Shown here: positions 1-26,462 of the stretch, piece by piece
Numbering within the stretch: the first letter of the stretch is position 1
Layout of the letters: the number at the start of each line of letters is the position of its first letter
Origin: a virus
Taxonomy: Duplodnaviria; Caudoviricetes
Length of the DNA: 64,000 nucleotides
IMG/VR virus record: IMGVR_UViG_3300028888_000116
Location: 1-64,000 of that record
Direction: 5' to 3' (one strand)
Made by a program: the position numbers and the translations under genes
The notes under the pieces: model-generated
What the model saw: only the letters and a program-made list of their open reading frames with translations
Told to the model about the DNA's origin: nothing
The model's database searches: none

Positions 1-43
1 GCGTACAGAAGATAAAAAGGATGTTACCGCTATTTGGGAAAAA

Positions 44-520
44 TTGAATAAATTAATTGAAACTTATTCAAAGAAAGGAATTAGCTTTCTACCAGGTAGT
101 GCAAATGAAAATGATTTATATGAAGCTTATAAGTTTTGGAAAGAAGCGAATGATATTGTAATGAATCTTGAAGATAATTATAATCTTAATGTCACTCGTC
201 CATTTTGGGATTTAATTGAAGCAAATAATCCTTTTAAAAAGGAAAAAGATGTTGGTGAAGTTCTAATAGATTTTGACTGGGAATCAGCTTTTGATAATAA
301 TGAAAATAAGATAATAAAATGTTTATTTGAAGCATATCAAGATTTTCAAAATTTTGAAAAGTGGAGACTTGAAAGTGCAAATGAAGATTCAAACTTTACT
401 TGTGAAATCTATGATGATGGTATAGATGGTTGTATTCAGGTAAGAGCTGAATATTATAATGATGGCAGAATATTATATATTGAGCAAATTTTAAGAGGAG
501 CTGAATATAATCCATATTAA
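44..520 (+). CDS. hypothetical protein
   Basis: 158-aa ORF with a TTG start and typical codon usage; no recognisable motif. Confidence 0.6.
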   Translation: MNKLIETYSKKGISFLPGSANENDLYEAYKFWKEANDIVMNLEDNYNLNVTRPFWDLIEANNPFKKEKDVGEVLIDFDWESAFDNNENKIIKCLFEAYQDFQNFEKWRLESANEDSNFTCEIYDDGIDGCIQVRAEYYNDGRILYIEQILRGAEYNPY

Positions 521-546
521 TAGCAAATTATTGGAGGTATAATAAT

Positions 547-1518
547 ATGAAAAATCGAGTTGTAAGATTTATCGTTATTGGTGTAATCGCAATCATTCTT
601 TTGGTTGTTGGTTTGAATTGTTGTTCTTCTGTTGGGCCAACAGAAAGGGGAATTATGACGACTTTTGGTAAGCCTTCCACTGAGATTCTTGAACCTGGTC
701 TCCATTTCAAGAGTCCTATTGGTCAGACTCTCGTGAAGAAAGATTTGTCGCCTATTGAATACTCAAAAACATTCCCTGTTGGAGAAGGCGGAGCTGTATC
801 AAAGGATATGCAGACAATTGGCGTAACCTTTACTTTGTATTGGAGATATTCTCCCGATAGAATTTATGAAATTGTAACCAACTATAAAGATGAACAGAAA
901 ATTTATCAACCAATATCTACTGCTGTAAAAGCTGCTCTAAAGGCGGAAATCGGAAAATACTCAGTTGAAGAGTTGATTCAGAATCAGACTAAAATTACTG
1001 AAGATGTCAGAAGTTCATTTGAAACTGATAAAGATATAGCGAGACTTCCTATTGAAATCCAGTCATTCAAAATTGATAACTGGGATTGGTCAGATGATTA
1101 TGATGCTATGATTAAAAAGACAATGGTTCGAAAGCAGGAAGTAGAACAGATGAAACAGGAAGTTGCTCTTTCTGAACAGGCCGCTCAGAAACAGGTTAAG
1201 GAAGCTGAAGCTGAAAAGCAGAGAATTGAATTGGAAGCAGACGCTGCTCTTATTAAAGCTCAGAAAGAAGCAGATGCAGCAGTTGCCCAGGCTGAAGGTG
1301 AAGCTCAGGCTAAGAAAGTTAAGGCAGAAGCTGAAAAATATGAAGCATTACAGATTCAGCAAGCGGCATCTATGAAGAAATCTCAGTGGGAACACGAAGA
1401 GAGAATGTTGGAATTGGAAGCAAAACTTCAGCACGAGAAAACTTGGAATGGAGCAATGGTTCCAAATTATATCCCAATTACTGCTGCTGGAACAATTGTT
1501 GATATTTCTGGTAATTAA
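547..1518 (+). CDS. SPFH/Band 7/prohibitin-family membrane protein
   Basis: N-terminal TM helix, then VGPTERGIMTTFGK...LEPGLHFKSP, VSKDMQTI, C-terminal Ala/Glu/Lys coiled coil; GGAGG SD. Confidence 0.9.
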   Translation: MKNRVVRFIVIGVIAIILLVVGLNCCSSVGPTERGIMTTFGKPSTEILEPGLHFKSPIGQTLVKKDLSPIEYSKTFPVGEGGAVSKDMQTIGVTFTLYWRYSPDRIYEIVTNYKDEQKIYQPISTAVKAALKAEIGKYSVEELIQNQTKITEDVRSSFETDKDIARLPIEIQSFKIDNWDWSDDYDAMIKKTMVRKQEVEQMKQEVALSEQAAQKQVKEAEAEKQRIELEADAALIKAQKEADAAVAQAEGEAQAKKVKAEAEKYEALQIQQAASMKKSQWEHEERMLELEAKLQHEKTWNGAMVPNYIPITAAGTIVDISGN

Positions 1519-1540
1519 GTTTATCTGAAATAGATTTTGA

Positions 1541-1566
1541 AAAAGGGAAGTTTTTACTTCCCTTTT
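1541..1566 (+). terminator. rho-independent terminator
   Basis: AAAAGGGAAGT-tttt-ACTTCCCTTTT followed by a T run after the SPFH gene. Confidence 0.85.
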
Positions 1567-1586
1567 TTTATAGGATAAATAAAATT

Positions 1587-1820
1587 ATGAAGATATTTAA
1601 AATTGTAGCTAAAGAGTGTTCATTAGATTTAGAAGAAAAAACTCAAAATGTTATTCGTGACCTGTTTTCTGAATACCCAAATGGTGAAATTGAAAAGATA
1701 AATAATTGGGGCGGAGAAAATTGGATATATACTTCAATTCTTTTTGAAACAGAACCTAAAAAAGATGAAATTAATCCTTTATTTATTCATCAGATTATTT
1801 CAGAACTTAAAGGAGAGTAA
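1587..1820 (+). CDS. small hypothetical protein, paralogue 1
   Basis: shares ETQxVIxxLFxxYPNGxIE...SIxFETEP with the next ORF. Confidence 0.75.
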   Translation: MKIFKIVAKECSLDLEEKTQNVIRDLFSEYPNGEIEKINNWGGENWIYTSILFETEPKKDEINPLFIHQIISELKGE

Positions 1821-1823
1821 AAT

Positions 1824-2099
1824 ATGAAAATCTATAAAAATATTACCTCTTCAAGAGAAGATATAGAAAGAGAGACTCAGAAAGTAATAAATGAGCTTTT
1901 TTATCAATACCCAAATGGTAAAATAGAGAATTTTCAGTCAACAGCAGCATCTAAAGGTGGTCAAGTTACTTATATGTATATAAGTAATTCTATTATTTTT
2001 GAAACGGAACCAGAACAAACAAAATCTGAAGTTACTATTGATAATCCTTTAATTCTGAATCAACTTATAGAGTCACTTAAAGATTTAATAAATCATTAA
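1824..2099 (+). CDS. small hypothetical protein, paralogue 2
   Basis: AAGGAG SD; clear similarity to 1587..1820. Confidence 0.75.
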   Translation: MKIYKNITSSREDIERETQKVINELFYQYPNGKIENFQSTAASKGGQVTYMYISNSIIFETEPEQTKSEVTIDNPLILNQLIESLKDLINH

Positions 2100-2138
2100 C
2101 TTTTTATTCTCATTTTGTTATATTATAAATATAAGGAG
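2098..2138 (+). promoter_or_regulatory. class E promoter motif (AACTTTT-N~12-TTATA[T/A]TATAAATA) plus SD
   Basis: the motif recurs about 8 times before non-structural genes. Confidence 0.7.
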
Positions 2139-2146
2139 ATTTTCAG

Positions 2147-3085
2147 ATGGCTGATAAATTTAAGACACTTGAATTCAATTTTGATGAAACAAATTTCCCA
2201 CCTAAATATGAATCAAAAGGAAAATTTATTCTTGCTGGAGAGCAGATTCCAAATCAAGGCGATGATTCAGCAGAAGAAATGCTTTGGTCCTATGTAGCCT
2301 CAATGCATAGAGATGGAGTTGATGATAATTTCAATTCAAACTTTTTTATGGATTTAAAGCCTCGTCTCACCCCTAATCAGCAGAAACTTTCTTTTCCAAA
2401 AGATTTCAAAGATGTAATTGAACAGATGTCAGCTATGAATGAAAATATGAAAGAAGCTAAAAAAGCTCGTTCAAAAGAAGAAAAAGCTGCTGAAAAGAAA
2501 TATAAAGAATCTCTCAAAGAAAAATATGGATTCGCAATTGTTAATGGAAAAAAGCAGCCTCTTGGAGCTTATATGATAGAACCACCAGGAATCCTTTTCT
2601 CTCGTGGAGCACCAAAGATTCACGGACATTGGAAATACAGAGTTCAGCCAGAAGATATTATCATTAATTGGTGCTCTGATAAGCCAGCTCCTAAAGCTCC
2701 AACAGGACATCATTGGAAAGAAGTTGTTGCAAATCGAAAAGCATTTCAGATTGTAAAATATGAAGTTGATACTGGTCACGTAGTTACTGGACCAAAGAAA
2801 ATACTTTTTGCTGCGAAGGCTGATAATAAGAAAGCTGCAGATAAGAAAAAGTTTGAAAAAGCTCTTAAGCTGATTAAAAACTGGGATAAAATGGAAGCTC
2901 ATATCGAAAAGGGGCTTAAATCAAGAGATAAAAAAACTCAGGAAGCTGCCCTGGTTTCTTGGTTGATTAAAGAAACTTCTATCAGAATTGGCTCTTATGA
3001 TACTAAAGGTACTGATTTTGAAAATGGAGTTGTTGGAGCTTCAACTTTAAAAGTTGGAAATATCATTCTTACAAAGGAAGATTAA
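2147..3085 (+). CDS. DNA topoisomerase IB, eukaryote-like long type, N-terminal/core fragment lacking the catalytic Tyr domain
   Basis: KYGFAIVNG, IEPPGILFSRG, RVQPEDIIIN, KAPTGHHWKEV, SIRIG...VGASTLKVGNI align by eye with human Top1 core motifs; the ORF stops before the GKD/His/Tyr region. Confidence 0.85.
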   Translation: MADKFKTLEFNFDETNFPPKYESKGKFILAGEQIPNQGDDSAEEMLWSYVASMHRDGVDDNFNSNFFMDLKPRLTPNQQKLSFPKDFKDVIEQMSAMNENMKEAKKARSKEEKAAEKKYKESLKEKYGFAIVNGKKQPLGAYMIEPPGILFSRGAPKIHGHWKYRVQPEDIIINWCSDKPAPKAPTGHHWKEVVANRKAFQIVKYEVDTGHVVTGPKKILFAAKADNKKAADKKKFEKALKLIKNWDKMEAHIEKGLKSRDKKTQEAALVSWLIKETSIRIGSYDTKGTDFENGVVGASTLKVGNIILTKED

Positions 3086-3339
3086 TGCAGAGTCTTGAAA
3101 ATTGTGAATTCTGTATTCATTGTAAAGATTATGTAAAGCCCGGTTTTGGAGATAATTTTGATATTAAAAGAAATAAAATTATTGTTCTTAATGGTCGTGG
3201 CTGGCATCCTTCATTAGCGCTCTGTGTTTCAAAATATGGAAAGAAAATAATGAAAAATTGTAAATGGTGTCCAGCTTTTAAAGAGCAAAAATTCAATAAA
3301 AATGTTAATTGGGAAGGTATTTTTAATGAAGTTAAATAA
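3085..3339 (+). CDS. Cys-rich hypothetical protein
   Basis: CxxCxxC and CxxC motifs; start overlaps the previous stop (TAATG). Confidence 0.65.
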   Translation: MQSLENCEFCIHCKDYVKPGFGDNFDIKRNKIIVLNGRGWHPSLALCVSKYGKKIMKNCKWCPAFKEQKFNKNVNWEGIFNEVK

Positions 3340-3571
3340 AGTTAAAACAATTTTGGTTGCAAAAGTTATTACTGAAGCAAAAATAGGATTTCGAGTTCCT
3401 ATGGAAGAAACTGTAAAACTCTATTCTCTCAATACAAAAAAGAAAGACCTTGAAAGGGAGTGGGAAAACGAAGGAATGATGGCAATTCAGCAGACTCTTC
3501 CCGATAGAAAAATTTTAGAAGTAAAAAGTATTGAATGGCAAACACTTAATGGCCAGAAAATAAATTTTTAA
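3326..3571 (+). CDS. hypothetical protein (likely start ATG 3326)
   Basis: GGAAGG SD upstream; coupled to the previous ORF. Confidence 0.6.
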   Translation: MKLNKVKTILVAKVITEAKIGFRVPMEETVKLYSLNTKKKDLEREWENEGMMAIQQTLPDRKILEVKSIEWQTLNGQKINF

Positions 3572-3605
3572 TTTGTACATTCATATTCTGTAATACTAAA
3601 TTATT

Positions 3606-3848
3606 ATGGAAAATGAAGAATTAGAAACATTCGTTGAAGTTGAAACTGGAAGTGAATCTTATGATGATTATATCACTTTCGGTGATATAGCATTAATCAC
3701 CTTCTTAGCTATTCTCGGATGTGCCGTTTTTGCATTTATTATGAAAATAATCAGAAAAAATATAAAAAATGCAAAAATTAAACTCGGGGATAAAATTGAA
3801 GTTAGTGTAGAATCAAAAGATAACACTGATGAAAAGAAGTTGAAATAA
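3606..3848 (+). CDS. small single-pass membrane protein
   Basis: hydrophobic IALITFLAILGCAVFAFIM segment; ACTAAAT motif just upstream. Confidence 0.7.
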   Translation: MENEELETFVEVETGSESYDDYITFGDIALITFLAILGCAVFAFIMKIIRKNIKNAKIKLGDKIEVSVESKDNTDEKKLK

Positions 3849-4342
3849 TGGAAGAAACAGAATTATCAAGAATATATAACTTAACTCATAATGGAAGAAA
3901 TAATAGACTTTCCTGTGGATTTTTAATTGTCGATAGACAGACTGGAAAATTTCTCGCTTGTCATTCTACAGGAAAACCAAAAGATATGTTCGATATAACT
4001 AAAGGACATTTAGACCCACCAGAAAATCCATTAGAGTGTGCCATAAGAGAATGCCAAGAAGAAACTGGATTATCCGTTAATCCTAATGAAGTTTTCGATT
4101 GTGGCCAATTTACCTATCAAAAAGATAAAGATTTACATATATTCATTTATGTAACAGATATAAATATTCCCGAATTACATTGCGATTCTACTTTTGAAAT
4201 GTATGGAAAACAATTACCAGAGATGAATGGGTATTCACTGGTGAATGACTTTTCTTTATTCTATAAAAATCTTGGAACCGTTTTAGAAGAGGCCTATAAT
4301 AGGCCAGGCGCCAAGGAATTTATAGAAGCCCGCCTCATTTAG
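3848..4342 (+). CDS. NUDIX hydrolase
   Basis: Nudix box KGHLDPPENPLECAIRECQEETGL; SCGFLI...FLACH. Confidence 0.92.
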   Translation: MEETELSRIYNLTHNGRNNRLSCGFLIVDRQTGKFLACHSTGKPKDMFDITKGHLDPPENPLECAIRECQEETGLSVNPNEVFDCGQFTYQKDKDLHIFIYVTDINIPELHCDSTFEMYGKQLPEMNGYSLVNDFSLFYKNLGTVLEEAYNRPGAKEFIEARLI

Positions 4343-4358
4343 TAGTTAATTTATCTTT

Positions 4359-6428
4359 ATGTTAAAAATTAATTCTCTCGTCTTGCATAATTTTACTTGC
4401 GTATCTGATGCTGAATTTGATTTTTCAGATGATAAAACAATTCTTTTAATTGGAAAAAACGGACAAGGTAAATCTTCTATTCTATCTGCGATTGCTCTAT
4501 GTCTTACTGGAGAAACTAGAGGTACACAATTTAAAGATTTAATCAAACTTGGTAAAGATTCTAGCTTTGTAAAGTTAAATGCTCTTATAAATAATAAGCC
4601 TCTTGATATTGAGGTAACACTTCATATTAAAAATGGAAGAGTCAGAACAATAAAATATGAAGATAAAATCTATATCAATTCTGATGCCAATGATTTAATA
4701 AAGTCTCTTGAAATTGATTTTTACGCAAATATAATGCTATCAATTCAAGGTAAATCAGAAGATATAACGAATCAAGGCCCAGCGGAAAGAAAATATTATT
4801 TACAGAAATTACTCAATTTTGATTTTTATGAAAAACTTCAGCCTTATAAGGATAAGGTAACGAATCTGAATGATACAATTGATGAAATTGAGAAATCCAT
4901 TAAAGTTAATGAAGAACTCATTTCTCAAAAGAAAAAAGAAATAAAAGACGAAATTGATTTCTTTTTTACGGACGAAGACATCATTAATCTTCAAAAGAAG
5001 ATTGGTGGATTAACTCAGGAAATAGATGAGTTTGGTGAGAATATTTCAAAGAAGAATGAATTAGTCAGCGAGTTCTCTAAAATAAAAACTCAAGTATCTG
5101 ATTTGAATAATGAAAAGAGCCAGAATTCTATAAAGATTAAAAACTTAAAAGAAAAGAAATCAGATTATGACAATCTTGAAAATGAAATAAAAGAAGTTGA
5201 ATTAAAGATTGCAGAAGAAACTGAGAAATTGGGAAAGGCAAATCTTGAAAGTTCTGATGCCAAAAAAGTTTTAGATTCTCATAAAGAAAAAGTAAAAGAC
5301 GCTGAATCTGAAAAGAATAAAATATCTTATGAGCTCAACGATATAAAGAAGAAAAAAGATTTATTATCTAAAGGAAAATGTCCAACTTGTGGTAATGAGT
5401 TCACATCAGATGAAGTTGAAGAAATTGAAAGTTCTTACAAAGAAATAGAAAGAAAATATGAAGATTCTTGTAATTGGCTTAAAACATTTGAATTGGATGC
5501 TAATATAGCAGCTCAAGGATATAATGAATCTGTCACAAAAGTAAACAATATTAATTCTTCTATCAATTCAGAAAAAAGACAGAAAAGTTATCTTGAATCC
5601 AAATTAAAGGCTAAACCAGATTTTAGTGGTATTCAAACTTTGGAAAAAAGAAATATTGAAATTGATTCTGAAATCAACACAAAAAATAATTTAATAACTC
5701 AAAAAGAAAATGAGATAAAAGAAATTGATAAGTCTTTGCTCGAATATGATAGAATAAATAAAGAGTTAAAAGAAAATCAAGAGTTATTAAATAATTATAA
5801 CAGTACAATTCTGAAAAATAATTTGATACTTCAGAATAATAAAACAATTCGTGAATCCATTATCAGTATGGAAGAGCAAATAAAAACGAATATGTCTTCT
5901 CTTGAATCATATAGAAAGAGTTTACAATCTTATATTGATTGTATTGATATATTTGAAAAGACATTCCCGAATTATTTAATTGTTAAAACTTGTGCTAAGC
6001 TTGAAAAAGCAATTAATGATTTTGTTCAAACGATATTTCCCGAAATGGAAGTTAGATTGTTTCAGAATAAGCAAGGAGTAGAGTTCTTCTATACACCTGA
6101 AAAGAGTACTGTAAAGAAATGGATAAAAGAAAATCTATTGAATGCAAAAAATGCCTCAGGTTTTGAGAAGGCGGCATTATCAATGTCATTTAAGGTAGCT
6201 CTTTTGAAAGCTTACGATATTCCATTTGCTTTCCTAGATGAGGTTGATTCAGCCGCTGATGATGAAAATTCAGAAAATATGTTCAAAGCAATCATTTCTA
6301 ATAATATCTTTGAGCAAATCTTTATTATATCTCATAAATCTTCAGTGAGAGATTCTATAGTAACAATTGCACCAAAAGCAAAGGTATATTATGTTGCAGA
6401 AGGCAACTTTAGTACGGAAGAGCAATAA
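4359..6428 (+). CDS. SbcC/Rad50/T4 gp46-like recombination exonuclease ATPase subunit
   Basis: Walker A GKNGQGKSS, coiled coil with CPTCG zinc hook, signature ASGFEK, Walker B AFLDEVD, IISH. Confidence 0.93.
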   Translation: MLKINSLVLHNFTCVSDAEFDFSDDKTILLIGKNGQGKSSILSAIALCLTGETRGTQFKDLIKLGKDSSFVKLNALINNKPLDIEVTLHIKNGRVRTIKYEDKIYINSDANDLIKSLEIDFYANIMLSIQGKSEDITNQGPAERKYYLQKLLNFDFYEKLQPYKDKVTNLNDTIDEIEKSIKVNEELISQKKKEIKDEIDFFFTDEDIINLQKKIGGLTQEIDEFGENISKKNELVSEFSKIKTQVSDLNNEKSQNSIKIKNLKEKKSDYDNLENEIKEVELKIAEETEKLGKANLESSDAKKVLDSHKEKVKDAESEKNKISYELNDIKKKKDLLSKGKCPTCGNEFTSDEVEEIESSYKEIERKYEDSCNWLKTFELDANIAAQGYNESVTKVNNINSSINSEKRQKSYLESKLKAKPDFSGIQTLEKRNIEIDSEINTKNNLITQKENEIKEIDKSLLEYDRINKELKENQELLNNYNSTILKNNLILQNNKTIRESIISMEEQIKTNMSSLESYRKSLQSYIDCIDIFEKTFPNYLIVKTCAKLEKAINDFVQTIFPEMEVRLFQNKQGVEFFYTPEKSTVKKWIKENLLNAKNASGFEKAALSMSFKVALLKAYDIPFAFLDEVDSAADDENSENMFKAIISNNIFEQIFIISHKSSVRDSIVTIAPKAKVYYVAEGNFSTEEQ

Positions 6429-11923: not shown

Positions 11924-11983
11924 AATATTAAATAGTACTTTTCTTAAGGTTTTCATTATATTATAAATATAGGAGATTGCTCT

Positions 11984-12499
11984 ATGAGATTTGATATAAG
12001 TATCTTAAATGAAGAAGAAAGAGATGAAGCATTAAATATTGCTACTGAAATTTCTATGGCAGCGATGGAAATGGATTTTGAAAAAGTAAGGATTCAACTC
12101 GATTCTATTCAAGAGATATTTGACGACCATTATTCTAAAATTGAGAATAAGCTTCGTGCAGAAGAGCATAATAACTTCCTACAACTCATAGAAAAAAATG
12201 AAAATGGTGGACAGGACACTTTAACAATCCCAAAACATAGGGGAAAATTTTATTGGCCGATTTTCAGAAAAGATATTATGAAAGAAACTGAAAAGGCATT
12301 CGGTATTCTTGATTTGGAAGCTACAGAAGAAATGCGACAAGAATCATTGAAGAAATGGAAATCAGAGCCAATTCATTGGTTACCAAAATCAAAAATAATC
12401 GTTTACCAAGGTCTTTATTTCATTCCATCTGATTATTGCCAGATTTCTTATATGGATAAATTTAAAAGTAGCTATATTATAAAAACATTTAATATTTAA
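11984..12499 (+). CDS. hypothetical protein
   Basis: class E promoter and GGAG SD upstream. Confidence 0.7.
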   Translation: MRFDISILNEEERDEALNIATEISMAAMEMDFEKVRIQLDSIQEIFDDHYSKIENKLRAEEHNNFLQLIEKNENGGQDTLTIPKHRGKFYWPIFRKDIMKETEKAFGILDLEATEEMRQESLKKWKSEPIHWLPKSKIIVYQGLYFIPSDYCQISYMDKFKSSYIIKTFNI

Positions 12500-22897: not shown

Positions 22898-24556
22898 TTA
22901 AAATTCAAATCCCATTTTTTCCATAAATTCATCTTGTTTGACTTTCATTGTTTCATAACTTCTATCATTAAGAGCCATCGGTCGCCAAACTACGAATGGT
23001 ATGAATTCATTATCATATTTATTTAGAAGCTCTATTGTTCCCGTTACAGCATCTGCAGCATCTTTTGCATTGACACCTCTTTGGTCCGTTTCCCAATCTC
23101 CATTTCCATCGGTCACAATATCTCCACTGAAGTGGTCAATTTTTGTTGTTCCTTTTCCCTGTTTTCTTTTTTCAAAATGGAGAGAAAGCATATTATTTTT
23201 CATATAGATACATTTTCCAGCGAACCATCTTTTATGTTGAACATAGTCAATAAAATTAAGATAAGGCTCGTTTGTTTTATCTACAGAAATATAATCTACA
23301 TCAATTCCTTTTCTTTTCAAAAACTGAATAGAAGGTTGAGACTGGAATCCATCATAAGAAACGTGTTTTATTTTCAGATTTCCAAGTGAAACTAAATCCC
23401 AAATAAAACATTTAATTGCATCAAGGTTTATGATTCCACCTTTTGGTATAATTGTAATAATAAAATCAGTGACAAATACTTTTACAGGATTTCCTGTTAC
23501 AGCATCTTTTCTTTCTGAATCTCGTTCTACGTGAGACATCGCAATTGAAGTAACGTCTCCTGCATAAGATTGGTCGACGGAAACTACTCTAGGTATTCCT
23601 GGCTCATAATAGAAATAATATTTATCAATAATTTTATTAAAAAACTTATCTTTAATCTGATTCCAAATCAAATGCTCTGGTTCTTCTTCAGCAGGAGCTG
23701 TAATTTGTCCAAACATATTTCTTAAATTATTTTCAAAACAATCATTTACAGTTTGCTTATTATAGAAGATTCTATCAGGAGTACCAGATGGAATACCGCA
23801 TTGGTCTCTTAAAAACTCTATTGGAGATTCAAGAGCGGCATCCAACATAGATTTATTACCATTTGATGTTACCTGAGTTGTTGGAGCCCATACTATATCA
23901 GTTGATTGATAGGTTGATAATTCGCCTTCTGATTCAATTACTTTTGGAGGCTGTCCAGCATTTCCTTTAAAAATAGGGAATGTTTGTTTTTTATTAAATT
24001 CTTTTTTCAAGCATTCTTGGTCAAGTGCCTTTTTTATTGCTTCTTTTGTCTCTACTTCTCCAGTTGGTGAAGATTTCCAATTTGGTCTTGGAGTTTCCCA
24101 AGCATAAGGATATTCTTGTGGAAAGTATTTCCATCTTGAGCCAGTAACAATGTAATTTTCATTACTATTTGGGGCCTCGTGCCAAATCCAATCGTCAATT
24201 ACTGATTCAAGAGAGTTTGGCTGAGAGTCAATTATCATTCTTCCATAATAATTGCCTTTCATACGGTTATCAATTCTTTTTCTTAATTTTGTAAAGAAAG
24301 TAAAAATCTTTTCATTAGTCCAACCATTTTCAGTAAACATTGTCATTTCAGATATAACAGCTGAAATAATATTCTGTCCCAAAATAGAACCAGGGCCATT
24401 TATGATTTTATAATTTACCCCATTCTGAAATTGCAAAACTGAATTATGAGTTACTATATTATCTTCAGTTAAATAAAGACCATCTTCAGTGGATAAATGA
24501 ATACACTTTTGTTTTTCTTTTCCTATATATTTTATACTTTTAATTTTAATTGGCAT
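22898..24556 (-). CDS. terL: terminase large subunit C-terminal part, preceded by split intein C-half (aa 1-38)
   Basis: MPIKIKSIKYIGKEKQKCIHL...IVTHN|S, then ATPase remainder and RNase H-like nuclease motifs (VSVDQS, SYDGFQS, IDH...KDAADAV); AAGGTGG SD. Confidence 0.9.
   Translation of the reverse strand: MPIKIKSIKYIGKEKQKCIHLSTEDGLYLTEDNIVTHNSVLQFQNGVNYKIINGPGSILGQNIISAVISEMTMFTENGWTNEKIFTFFTKLRKRIDNRMKGNYYGRMIIDSQPNSLESVIDDWIWHEAPNSNENYIVTGSRWKYFPQEYPYAWETPRPNWKSSPTGEVETKEAIKKALDQECLKKEFNKKQTFPIFKGNAGQPPKVIESEGELSTYQSTDIVWAPTTQVTSNGNKSMLDAALESPIEFLRDQCGIPSGTPDRIFYNKQTVNDCFENNLRNMFGQITAPAEEEPEHLIWNQIKDKFFNKIIDKYYFYYEPGIPRVVSVDQSYAGDVTSIAMSHVERDSERKDAVTGNPVKVFVTDFIITIIPKGGIINLDAIKCFIWDLVSLGNLKIKHVSYDGFQSQPSIQFLKRKGIDVDYISVDKTNEPYLNFIDYVQHKRWFAGKCIYMKNNMLSLHFEKRKQGKGTTKIDHFSGDIVTDGNGDWETDQRGVNAKDAADAVTGTIELLNKYDNEFIPFVVWRPMALNDRSYETMKVKQDEFMEKMGFEF
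24443..24556 (-). mobile_element. split intein C-half (38 aa, blocks F and G)
   Basis: block F KCI (Cys F4), block G VTHN, +1 residue Ser. Confidence 0.9.
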
Positions 24557-25361
24557 ATTTCCACCTTAATTTTTCTCCATTTATTGACCCAGCAACTCCG
24601 CCATTTACTTTGCAAGCTTCGGATATATGCCTTGCCATTGGATACTTATTTCTTGCTTCTTGTATTGTTTCAAAATATTCTCCAGTATTTATTAAAATAC
24701 AGGCTCTTGCCCTTGGGTTATTTCTCCCTTTTCTTTTTTCAGAGCCTTTTCCAAAATGCTCTTTTCTTTCACTTTCAGACATTTTAGAAATGGTTTCACT
24801 TCTTGATTTTTTTATTTTATCAAGAGTATCTTGAGTATGAGTTTTTCCATAAAACGGATTATTTTTTCCTGTTTTATCATAACCATTAAATTTTTTTGAA
24901 CGCTCTTCTTTTGACATTTTAGAAATTGTTTCAGCCCTTGCTTTTCTTGCTTTTTCTATCTGCTCTTTTGTTGGGTGCCACTCACCACGATAATTAATTC
25001 CTCGTCTATTTTCAGAGTTTATTTTTCTTATTTTCTCATATTCTCTTGAAGTAATTTTATATTTTTCTTTATTTTTTCCCATTGACATATAATATATAGC
25101 ATAAGTCATTTCTCTTGAAGGGTAAATTTTTAATAAAAGCTGATGACAAAAGAAATGCTCTCTTGCTGTTAAAGCAACAATATTTTCTTCTTTTTTATTC
25201 CAATTAGGAAATAAACTTCTTGGCAAAATATGATGAAACTCAAAATATTGATTTTCAAATTTTTTTCTTCTCGAATGAGATAAATTATCTGGCCTATTTC
25301 CTAATTTCATTTCATTTTTTGCGTTTGAAATTATTTTCATATAAATTCTTCTATAATTCAT
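24546..25361 (-). mobile_element. free-standing HNH homing endonuclease with NUMOD3-type repeats
   Basis: FEFHHILPRS...NIVALTAREHFFCHQLL; GKNNPFYGKTHTQDTLDKI; lies between the intein halves. Confidence 0.9.
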
Positions 25362-25379: not shown

Positions 25380-26462
25380 TTACTTGGAGTTGGTAGGGAA
25401 GTCGTCCAATTCTATAATTTCCCAATCAAACTCCGGGTGTTCCATAATATATTTTAAATTTTGAACTTCCCATTCACTTTCTGGTGAACGCCTTACTTTC
25501 CATAAATGAAAATCAGAACATCTAACTTTTCTGCCATCTTCTAATTCAATTTCGTAACAATCTGCTTCACCTTCAAAAGGGATATTTGTAACTGTTGCTT
25601 CACCTTGACTTGGAGATTTTACTTTATCTCCAATTTTTATTTCGCCCATTGTTTTTATTGAATTATCAGCCATTATTATTTTTGAATCTAAAGGCTGCGC
25701 AGTCGGGCTTGATGTTGTCCAGTGAAGGCAATTCGTTAATTCATCTCCAGCGGCATCAACCAAATCTGTATGAGAACGAACTCTCTTAAAATATGGACTC
25801 TGCTCAAGAATCTGAATAAATGGCTCAACAAGTAATTCCGATGCTTTCTTCTGATTCCAAGCACCCATACATTGAGTAAATACTGATGATGGAGCAAGAT
25901 TAAAGAATTTCCACGGATGCCACATCATAGCATAATGAGTAGAAATATATAATTGAATAAGGGTTGATAATGTTGATTTACCAGCACCAATACATTGAGT
26001 TAAAACTAAAGTTCTATATGGTTTTAATGGATTCATAAAATCTATGAATACATCTCTAGCCCAATCGAATGTTGATTCAGCCTGATTTCCGATATATTTT
26101 TCAGTTAAGAACTCTTCGGGAGTTGGGGGCTTTGCTTTAAAATTTAATCTCCAACCTTCTGCCAATAAATTATCTTTAAATGAATCATTTAACTTATCAT
26201 TTCTAGCAAGCCATTCTATAGCTGCCATAATATTATCAATATTTAAATTTTCTACGAGTTTATTATCAAATTGAGAAGTATCTCCAGCTAAAATATCTTC
26301 AAGAATATATTTTAATTCGCCCAATTCATTAGGGAGAGGTAAATTTTCAGATGGAGTTACAATGCCCTTTTCAATTTCCCATTTTGTTTTATCAGTATCA
26401 AAATCTTTAACTTTAATTGAGAATGGGTTCTCGTCAGGGTTTGAAATTATATTTTCGTCCAT
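25380..26462 (-). CDS. terL: terminase large subunit N-terminal ATPase part, fused to split intein N-half
   Basis: PPTPEEFLTEKYIG, Walker A LTQCIGAGKST; intein begins after ...WTTSSPT. Confidence 0.9.
   Translation of the reverse strand: MDENIISNPDENPFSIKVKDFDTDKTKWEIEKGIVTPSENLPLPNELGELKYILEDILAGDTSQFDNKLVENLNIDNIMAAIEWLARNDKLNDSFKDNLLAEGWRLNFKAKPPTPEEFLTEKYIGNQAESTFDWARDVFIDFMNPLKPYRTLVLTQCIGAGKSTLSTLIQLYISTHYAMMWHPWKFFNLAPSSVFTQCMGAWNQKKASELLVEPFIQILEQSPYFKRVRSHTDLVDAAGDELTNCLHWTTSSPTAQPLDSKIIMADNSIKTMGEIKIGDKVKSPSQGEATVTNIPFEGEADCYEIELEDGRKVRCSDFHLWKVRRSPESEWEVQNLKYIMEHPEFDWEIIELDDFPTNSK
25383..25700 (-). mobile_element. split intein N-half (106 aa, Ala1)
   Basis: AQPLDSKI...MGEIKIGDKV (block A), CYEIELEDGRKVRCSDFHLW (block B His and Trp). 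Confidence 0.9.

Follow-up and report, generated by a model that had tools for sequence, protein, structure and literature searches.

Human TOP1 (PDB 1A31, 1A36, 1K4T) and CsTOP1 of Caldiarchaeum subterraneum (6Z01; PMC8748870, PMC4824112) are long-form topoisomerases IB (Topo IB), in which a cap, a hinge, a catalytic module, a linker and a tyrosine domain are carried by a single chain together with the catalytic residues Arg-Lys-Arg-His-Tyr. Among prokaryotes, the long form has been seen only in Thaumarchaeota (PMC4824112). The short Topo IB of vaccinia and Deinococcus has the same catalytic chemistry and the same fold, but lacks the Topoisom_I_N cap and the coiled-coil linker. Finally, kinetoplastids (Leishmania donovani, 2B9S) possess a long form made of two subunits, whose active site is shared between the chains.

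The carrier of the long form described here is a tailed phage. The stretch of DNA that was analysed, hereafter the window, measures 64,000 nucleotides and is the first 64 kb of a 74,223-bp viral contig, 23% complete according to CheckV. This estimate leads to a genome of about 320 kb, and a contig from a related phage reaches 326.5 kb. The sequencing runs in which the stretch occurs come from 18 studies and represent gut metagenomes of sheep, bovine and goat origin. The gene of interest (2147-3085, + strand) encodes a protein of 312 residues comprising a cap, a hinge and the first 85 or so residues of a catalytic module. We consider it very probable that this is the N-terminal subunit (N-half) of an obligate two-chain long-form Topo IB of a large rumen phage, with an active site shared between the chains and a second subunit (C-half) encoded by a separate gene, that is, a "gene in pieces". 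Such an enzyme would have the same domains and the same five catalytic residues as human TOP1 and CsTOP1, cap and linker included, and would be a two-subunit long form like that of kinetoplastids. Human TOP1 and CsTOP1 are single chains, whereas in the phage the chain is interrupted after the first Arg and before the Lys, the two genes lying 3.5 kb apart with the C-half before the N-half.

The N-terminal half and its conserved end

The cap (DNA-binding) domain, Pfam Topoisom_I_N (PF02919), covers residues 6-206 of the window protein (2162-2764, + strand) and was matched over profile positions 4-201 of 213, with an E value of 8.8e-39 and 133.7 bits for a cut-off of 25. Residues 226-310 (2822-3076, + strand) correspond to the beginning of the catalytic core (Pfam Topoisom_I) and match profile positions 3-84 of 228 only (E 9e-12). 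The best match in the PDB was CsTOP1 (6Z01, E 2.4e-34), human TOP1 being matched with an E value of 7e-30. The motifs quoted in a preliminary description of this DNA (IEPPGILFSRG, RVQPEDIIIN, PTGHHWKEV, SIRIG and VGASTLKVGNI) were all found. The arginine of SIRIG, Arg280 (codon AGA, 2984-2986, + strand), is equivalent to Arg488 of human TOP1, as deduced from the PDB alignment ranges and a count along the human sequence, and is invariant in alignments A1 and A3. The gene ends at a TAA stop (3083-3085, + strand) that shares one base with an ATG at 3085-3087, as had been reported before. This position corresponds to loop 515-522 of human TOP1, between R488 and K532. Thus, the protein does not stop before its catalytic domain, as was initially thought, but ends about 85 residues inside it, past the first catalytic Arg.

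The N-half gene has its own putative expression signals, in agreement with the preliminary description. A sequence scan revealed a promoter-like site, TTAACT-17 nt-TATATT, with a TG before the second hexamer (2096-2124, + strand), which would act as a promoter, and a Shine-Dalgarno sequence, AAGGAG, located 8 nt before the ATG (2133-2138, + strand). In a sheep-gut metatranscriptome run, contigs 100% identical to parts of the gene were present; as DNA carry-over is possible, they were not counted as expression. The neighbouring genes are related to replication and nucleotide metabolism, and include a clamp-loader-like protein, a dCMP deaminase, a NUDIX protein, an SMC/AAA protein of 689 aa (Rad50/SbcC-like), NrdD and NrdG. 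No PHROGs family was obtained for the N-half or its neighbours.

Two further open reading frames overlap or adjoin the gene. One, of 143 aa, lies antisense inside it (2471-2902, - strand); the matches that it has in relatives follow how well the sense frame is conserved, and it is most likely a shadow ORF. The other encodes a Cys-rich protein of 84 aa (CxxCxxC ... CxxC; 3085-3339, + strand) directly 3' of the N-half, without Pfam or PHROGs family. The contig of a related strain joins 3086 to 3325 and is devoid of this ORF, which is a strain-variable insert and not a part of the topoisomerase.

The position of the break is conserved among homologues. A search of 5.8 billion proteins returned 18 clusters, 301-333 aa long and 41-88% identical, that end a few residues past VGASTLKVxNIxL and within a few residues of the window stop, together with forms of 490-544 aa, at 39-45% identity, that run on with GKDS, TAKVFRT, LNHKK and TNYINP. 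When 1.84 billion representatives were searched with a profile, the matches listed included about 15 clusters (at 50% identity, 293-337 aa) that ended at the last profile positions; these split-length clusters sit amid many continuous forms of 540-590 aa. Clusters sharing this break number about 18 at 90% identity, and their identity to the window protein goes down to 40%. The dN/dS ratio of the window N-half (Nei-Gojobori) was 0.068 relative to L008 (92% amino acid identity), 0.088 relative to L010 and 0.154 relative to L006.

These data bear on the possibility that the gene is simply broken, i.e. that a recent truncation or damage by a homing endonuclease has left two decaying relics. Homing endonucleases do disrupt this family, in L015 and L016 (see below). 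However, the break recurs in clusters defined at 90% identity (about 18) and at 50% (about 15), dN/dS stays at 0.07-0.15, the catalytic residues are invariant, and both reading frames are intact, each with a promoter-like motif, a Shine-Dalgarno sequence and an ATG. The recent truncation, or pseudogene, envisaged in the preliminary description is contradicted by the conserved breakpoint and the low dN/dS, and we consider the broken-gene reading very improbable.

The partner gene beyond the contig end and its counterparts in relatives

No second Topo IB piece had been seen elsewhere in the window, and this was confirmed across the whole 74,223-bp record, where PF01028, PF14370 and the clade-specific C-half protein and HMM were unmatched. 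Topo II (PF00521, PF00204) gave no match in this 74-kb record either, which represents about 23% of the genome. Since the window is collinear with three related loci (L006, L008 and L010), a C-half was predicted just beyond the 5' end of the contig. Exact-sequence look-ups were performed with the 312-aa protein of the window and with a small protein from the upstream extension of the JGI contig Ga0247609_10002272. Each query returned the same two longer contigs, of 135,459 bp (ENA) and 15,561 bp (Logan), both of which encode an identical 312-aa protein. The gene tables of these contigs correspond to that of the window gene for gene, with a constant offset of 7,854, along the run 264 aa, Band_7 323, 77, 91, Topo IB N-half 312, 84, 81, 80, NUDIX 164, 689 and NrdD 750. 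The Logan contig shows 0 differences from the window over positions 7-4400 and provides a further 8.5 kb of upstream sequence. The JGI contig, which overlaps window positions 8-133 and extends upstream, had been retrieved with a 30-mer from window positions 21-50. The window itself begins within the 264-aa gene, the 3' part of which (2-520, + strand) is cut by the contig start and ties the window to the longer assemblies.

In the gene tables of both longer contigs, a gene of 270 aa (P0066) carrying PF01028 and PF14370 is found on the same strand as the N-half. In window coordinates it runs from -2203 to -1391, i.e. outside the window: six genes and 3.5 kb separate it from the N-half, which is downstream, and 1.4 kb separate it from the 5' end of the contig. 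This position was deduced from the gene tables in combination with the exact-sequence look-ups and the layout of the reads. The C-half was invisible in the preliminary description because the contig begins 1.4 kb downstream of its gene. Among the possibilities listed there, the data support the one in which the protein is a subunit of a bipartite phage Topo IB, as P0066 contains the Lys, Arg, His and Tyr that the N-half lacks.

Could the whole arrangement result from a misjoin at about 3085, or from a chimeric contig? The first six bases of the window differ from the other assemblies, and the JGI assembly broke at this place. On the other hand, contigs from four studies cross 3085 with the same stop, one with an additional AATC after 3083 and one without 3087-3324, and the two longer, independent contigs display an identical gene order. 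The misassembly at about 3085 that had been feared is therefore not borne out by the contigs, and an artefact of this type seems barely credible. Regarding the assembly break, Ga0247609_10002272 ends near window position 133. The 264-aa gene at this place appears hypervariable, with only 28-37% identity between phages whose adjacent genes share 56-92%.

P0066 contains the motifs GKD, FRT, LNHQ and NYS. Its residues K13, R70, H117 and Y223 are invariant in 21-22 clusters. The match of PF14370 (Topo_C_assoc) on P0066 was precomputed; the C-half of L003 scored an E value of 1.4e-16. The AF2 model of the C-half has a pLDDT of 90. It opens directly on a strand formed by residues 3-11 and contains a long helical hairpin between residues 125 and 210 (helices 125-167 and 170-210), which is consistent with the linker of TOP1 as far as the model indicates.

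Related phages likewise possess a separate C-half gene of 262-272 aa, which covers Topoisom_I positions 86-224 and Topo_C_assoc. Both halves are present on one contig in six other genomes, in the order N then C in L003 and L015, and C then N in L006, L008, L010 and a contig of 326,521 bp. Relative to the N-half, the C-half is placed 0.9 kb downstream in L003, 2.8-5.4 kb upstream in L006, L008 and L010, and 6 kb upstream on the 326,521-bp contig. All nine rows of the window's clade are split, and the C-half precedes the N-half wherever both share a contig, except in L003. In the latter, a gene for an NT5C-type 5'-nucleotidase and a 74-aa ORF separate the halves (4200-5079), with no endonuclease; it seems that the gap opened by the split collects cargo genes. 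No C-half was found within 6-10 kb on either side of the N-half in L004/L005 and L007, and co-occurrence is thus not proven for every lineage. In wider collections, neither half had a match in 50,697 GenBank phage records (tblastn), and a single-protein scan of IMG/VR gave no match; an alignment-based scan of IMG/VR gave 12 loci.

Fit of the two halves and the proposed enzyme

According to PDB chain alignments, the N-half corresponds to residues 251-514 or so of human TOP1 and the C-half to residues 523-758. Only the 8-residue loop 515-522, between R488 and K532, is absent between the two. The pentad Arg-Lys-Arg-His-Tyr is complete only across the two chains, with R280 in the N-half and Lys13, Arg70, His117 and Tyr223 in P0066. 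The coiled-coil linker and the C-terminal Tyr domain reside in the partner and not in the window ORF. At the junction, the N-half has 4 residues (TKED) after its homologous part and the C-half 3 residues (MAT) before its own. Taken together, the two halves are collinear with the continuous genes of L012, L013, L018, L022 and P0019-P0026. Moreover, their pairwise identities track each other across six genomes (r = 0.99).

The halves also have upstream signals in common. In alignment A5, the arrangement TTAACTTTTT...TTATATTATAAATAT...AGGAG before the ATG is shared by all eight upstream regions, four from N-half and four from C-half genes, and AGGAG is invariant in the eight; the C-half regions in this alignment are those of relatives, not of the window's own phage. 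From this similarity, the N-half and C-half genes could be co-regulated. The same motif, TTAACTTTTT, a spacer, TTATATTATAAATAT and AGGAG, precedes many replication-module genes of this phage group, with sites at 2090-2151 and 11951-11989 of the window and at 6-38, 3598-3656 and 9602-9667 of L006. The promoter-like site TTAACT-17-TATATT with its TG, upstream of the N-half, is part of this motif, which probably defines an early or middle promoter class, the class E of the preliminary description.

The N-half was also modelled alone with AF2. The mean pLDDT was 87; the model is confident up to about residue 280, and the last 40 residues have values of 55-69. In structural terms, such a tail is what an incomplete sub-domain awaiting its partner would look like.

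These observations can be set against the reading in which the N-half is a DNA clamp or decoy without catalytic activity that works by itself, with a function unrelated to the upstream C-half. The confident model of isolated residues 1-280 would suit a clamp, and so would the 6-10 kb flanks of L004/L005 and L007, where no C-half is seen. However, a C-half gene occurs both in the phage of the window and in six other genomes, the catalytic residues of each half are invariant (Arg280 in the N-half, K, R, H and Y in the C-half), the halves diverge in step and share expression signals, and the N-half ends in an incomplete sub-domain modelled with low confidence. The dead clamp or decoy was one option of the preliminary description; the co-inherited partner makes this option unnecessary, and we regard it as improbable.

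In the two-chain Topo IB that we favour, the N-half would contribute the cap, the hinge and, with the first catalytic Arg, the initial 85 or so residues of the catalytic module, while P0066 would contribute the catalytic Lys, the second Arg, the His, the coiled-coil linker and the nucleophilic Tyr. The cut would be located in the short loop that connects two predicted beta-strands and corresponds to residues 515-522 of human TOP1. The chains may then join non-covalently by strand pairing, so that a single active site would be rebuilt from residues of both. The resulting enzyme would be expected to relax supercoils during replication and transcription of the phage, by way of a 3'-phosphotyrosyl intermediate if it behaves like other long forms.

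Origin of the split and comparison with known systems

Relatives provide indications on how the split may have arisen. In L015, a gene for a 234-aa GIY-YIG protein (Pfam E 9e-8) is located exactly between the N-half and the C-half, and in its sisters L013 and L018 (100/100 support) the gene is continuous and reads ...NIKVGNGTLELDFLGKDT... at this place. In L016/L017 (9881-12666), a 314-aa GIY-YIG gene lies between GKDS and the arginine of FRT, which is a different cut; this endonuclease is homologous to that of L015 (39% identity), and the gene of the sister L022 is continuous. No intron was detected in the gap of L016 by an Rfam scan, which gave one chance match below threshold. In the window's clade, neither half was found to have an endonuclease gene, or a remnant of one, nearby. 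The N-half tree contains at least four changes of the split state, and a tree forcing all split forms together was rejected (p-AU 1.7e-109), this group having been defined after the tree was seen. By analogy with the "genes in pieces" of T4-like phages, this pattern is consistent with homing events that recurred at a single site.

For the window's clade, homing is the most likely origin, as deduced from these relatives. A free-standing GIY-YIG homing endonuclease gene would have landed in the loop and split the gene. The endonuclease would later have been lost, and the halves rearranged to the C-before-N order.

A terminase-like (large-subunit) gene of the window likewise appears to be in two pieces on the - strand, at 22898-24556 and 25380-26462, both of which match a single 746-aa gene in L004 (11337-13577). 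Between them lies a 271-aa endonuclease-like ORF with a NUMOD3 motif (24546-25361). This looks like a second gene in pieces of the same phage.

A split intein, RNA trans-splicing or ribosomal bypass could also join separately encoded halves covalently once they are expressed, and that the same window seems to hold a terminase gene in pieces would go along with this idea. However, the 4 and 3 extra residues at the junction leave no room for intein halves. The C-half is upstream of the N-half with six genes between, which excludes bypass and cis-splicing, and the gap of L016, the one relative scanned, contains no group I intron. Covalent joining thus appears highly improbable. A "fractured gene" of the split-intein type was also considered and rejected, since there are no intein halves and only the 4 + 3 extra residues at the junction termini.

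With regard to the split itself, a more ambitious reading can be proposed tentatively, although we think it unlikely to be right in full. A whole clade of rumen jumbo phages would possess an obligate heterodimeric TOP1-like enzyme with an active site formed in trans, the cap chain bringing the Arg and the other chain Lys, Arg, His and Tyr, and the split would be kept because it is useful and not merely tolerated. Destruction of the homing site would confer immunity to re-invasion. The split might perhaps also allow activity to be controlled through subunit assembly, or let DNA enter through a second opening, at the place where the chains meet non-covalently.

A two-chain enzyme of the kind favoured here can be compared first with the other Topo IB proteins. 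No description of a long-form or split Topo IB in phages was found in our literature search. The long form, regarded as eukaryotic or thaumarchaeal (PMC4824112), is here a conserved gene of the replication module of large tailed phages from the ruminant gut. The nearest arrangement, that of kinetoplastids, differs in the position of the cut. Their enzyme is cut in the linker region, so that the large subunit holds R, K, R and H and the small subunit the Tyr only, whereas the cap chain of the phage keeps only the first Arg. Chain A of 2B9S matches residues 7-119 of the phage C-half and chain B residues 207-258. The kinetoplastid cut therefore falls inside the phage C-half, confirming that it lies at a later position, as had been stated. 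The phage gene thus represents a natural cut that separates the first catalytic Arg from the Lys. Activity of the pair would imply that the core of the TOP1 catalytic module can withstand a break, and would make the pair a naturally divided model in which assembly, DNA gating and inhibitor binding could be studied. For annotation, phage genes of 300 aa labelled "truncated TOP1" and of 270 aa labelled "TOP1 C-terminal" should be paired and not labelled pseudogenes.

The genetic layout is best compared with nrdA-a/mobE/nrdA-b of Aeh1 (PMC3045599) and genes 39/60 with mobA of T4 (PMC2988022). In both, a free-standing endonuclease gene cuts an essential gene of DNA metabolism, without intron or intein, into two genes that are translated separately, and assembly of the subunits restores function. 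The order N-half, GIY-YIG gene, C-half in L015 is the same as that of these T4-like genes in pieces. The window's clade differs from them in having no endonuclease and in that its halves are neither adjacent nor in order. The tails also differ: the new ones here are of 3-4 residues, whereas the NrdA of Aeh1 needs longer tails derived from the element. Should the phage pair prove active, it would join those of Aeh1 and T4 as a well-documented example in which homing endonucleases have fragmented an essential gene and splicing plays no part.
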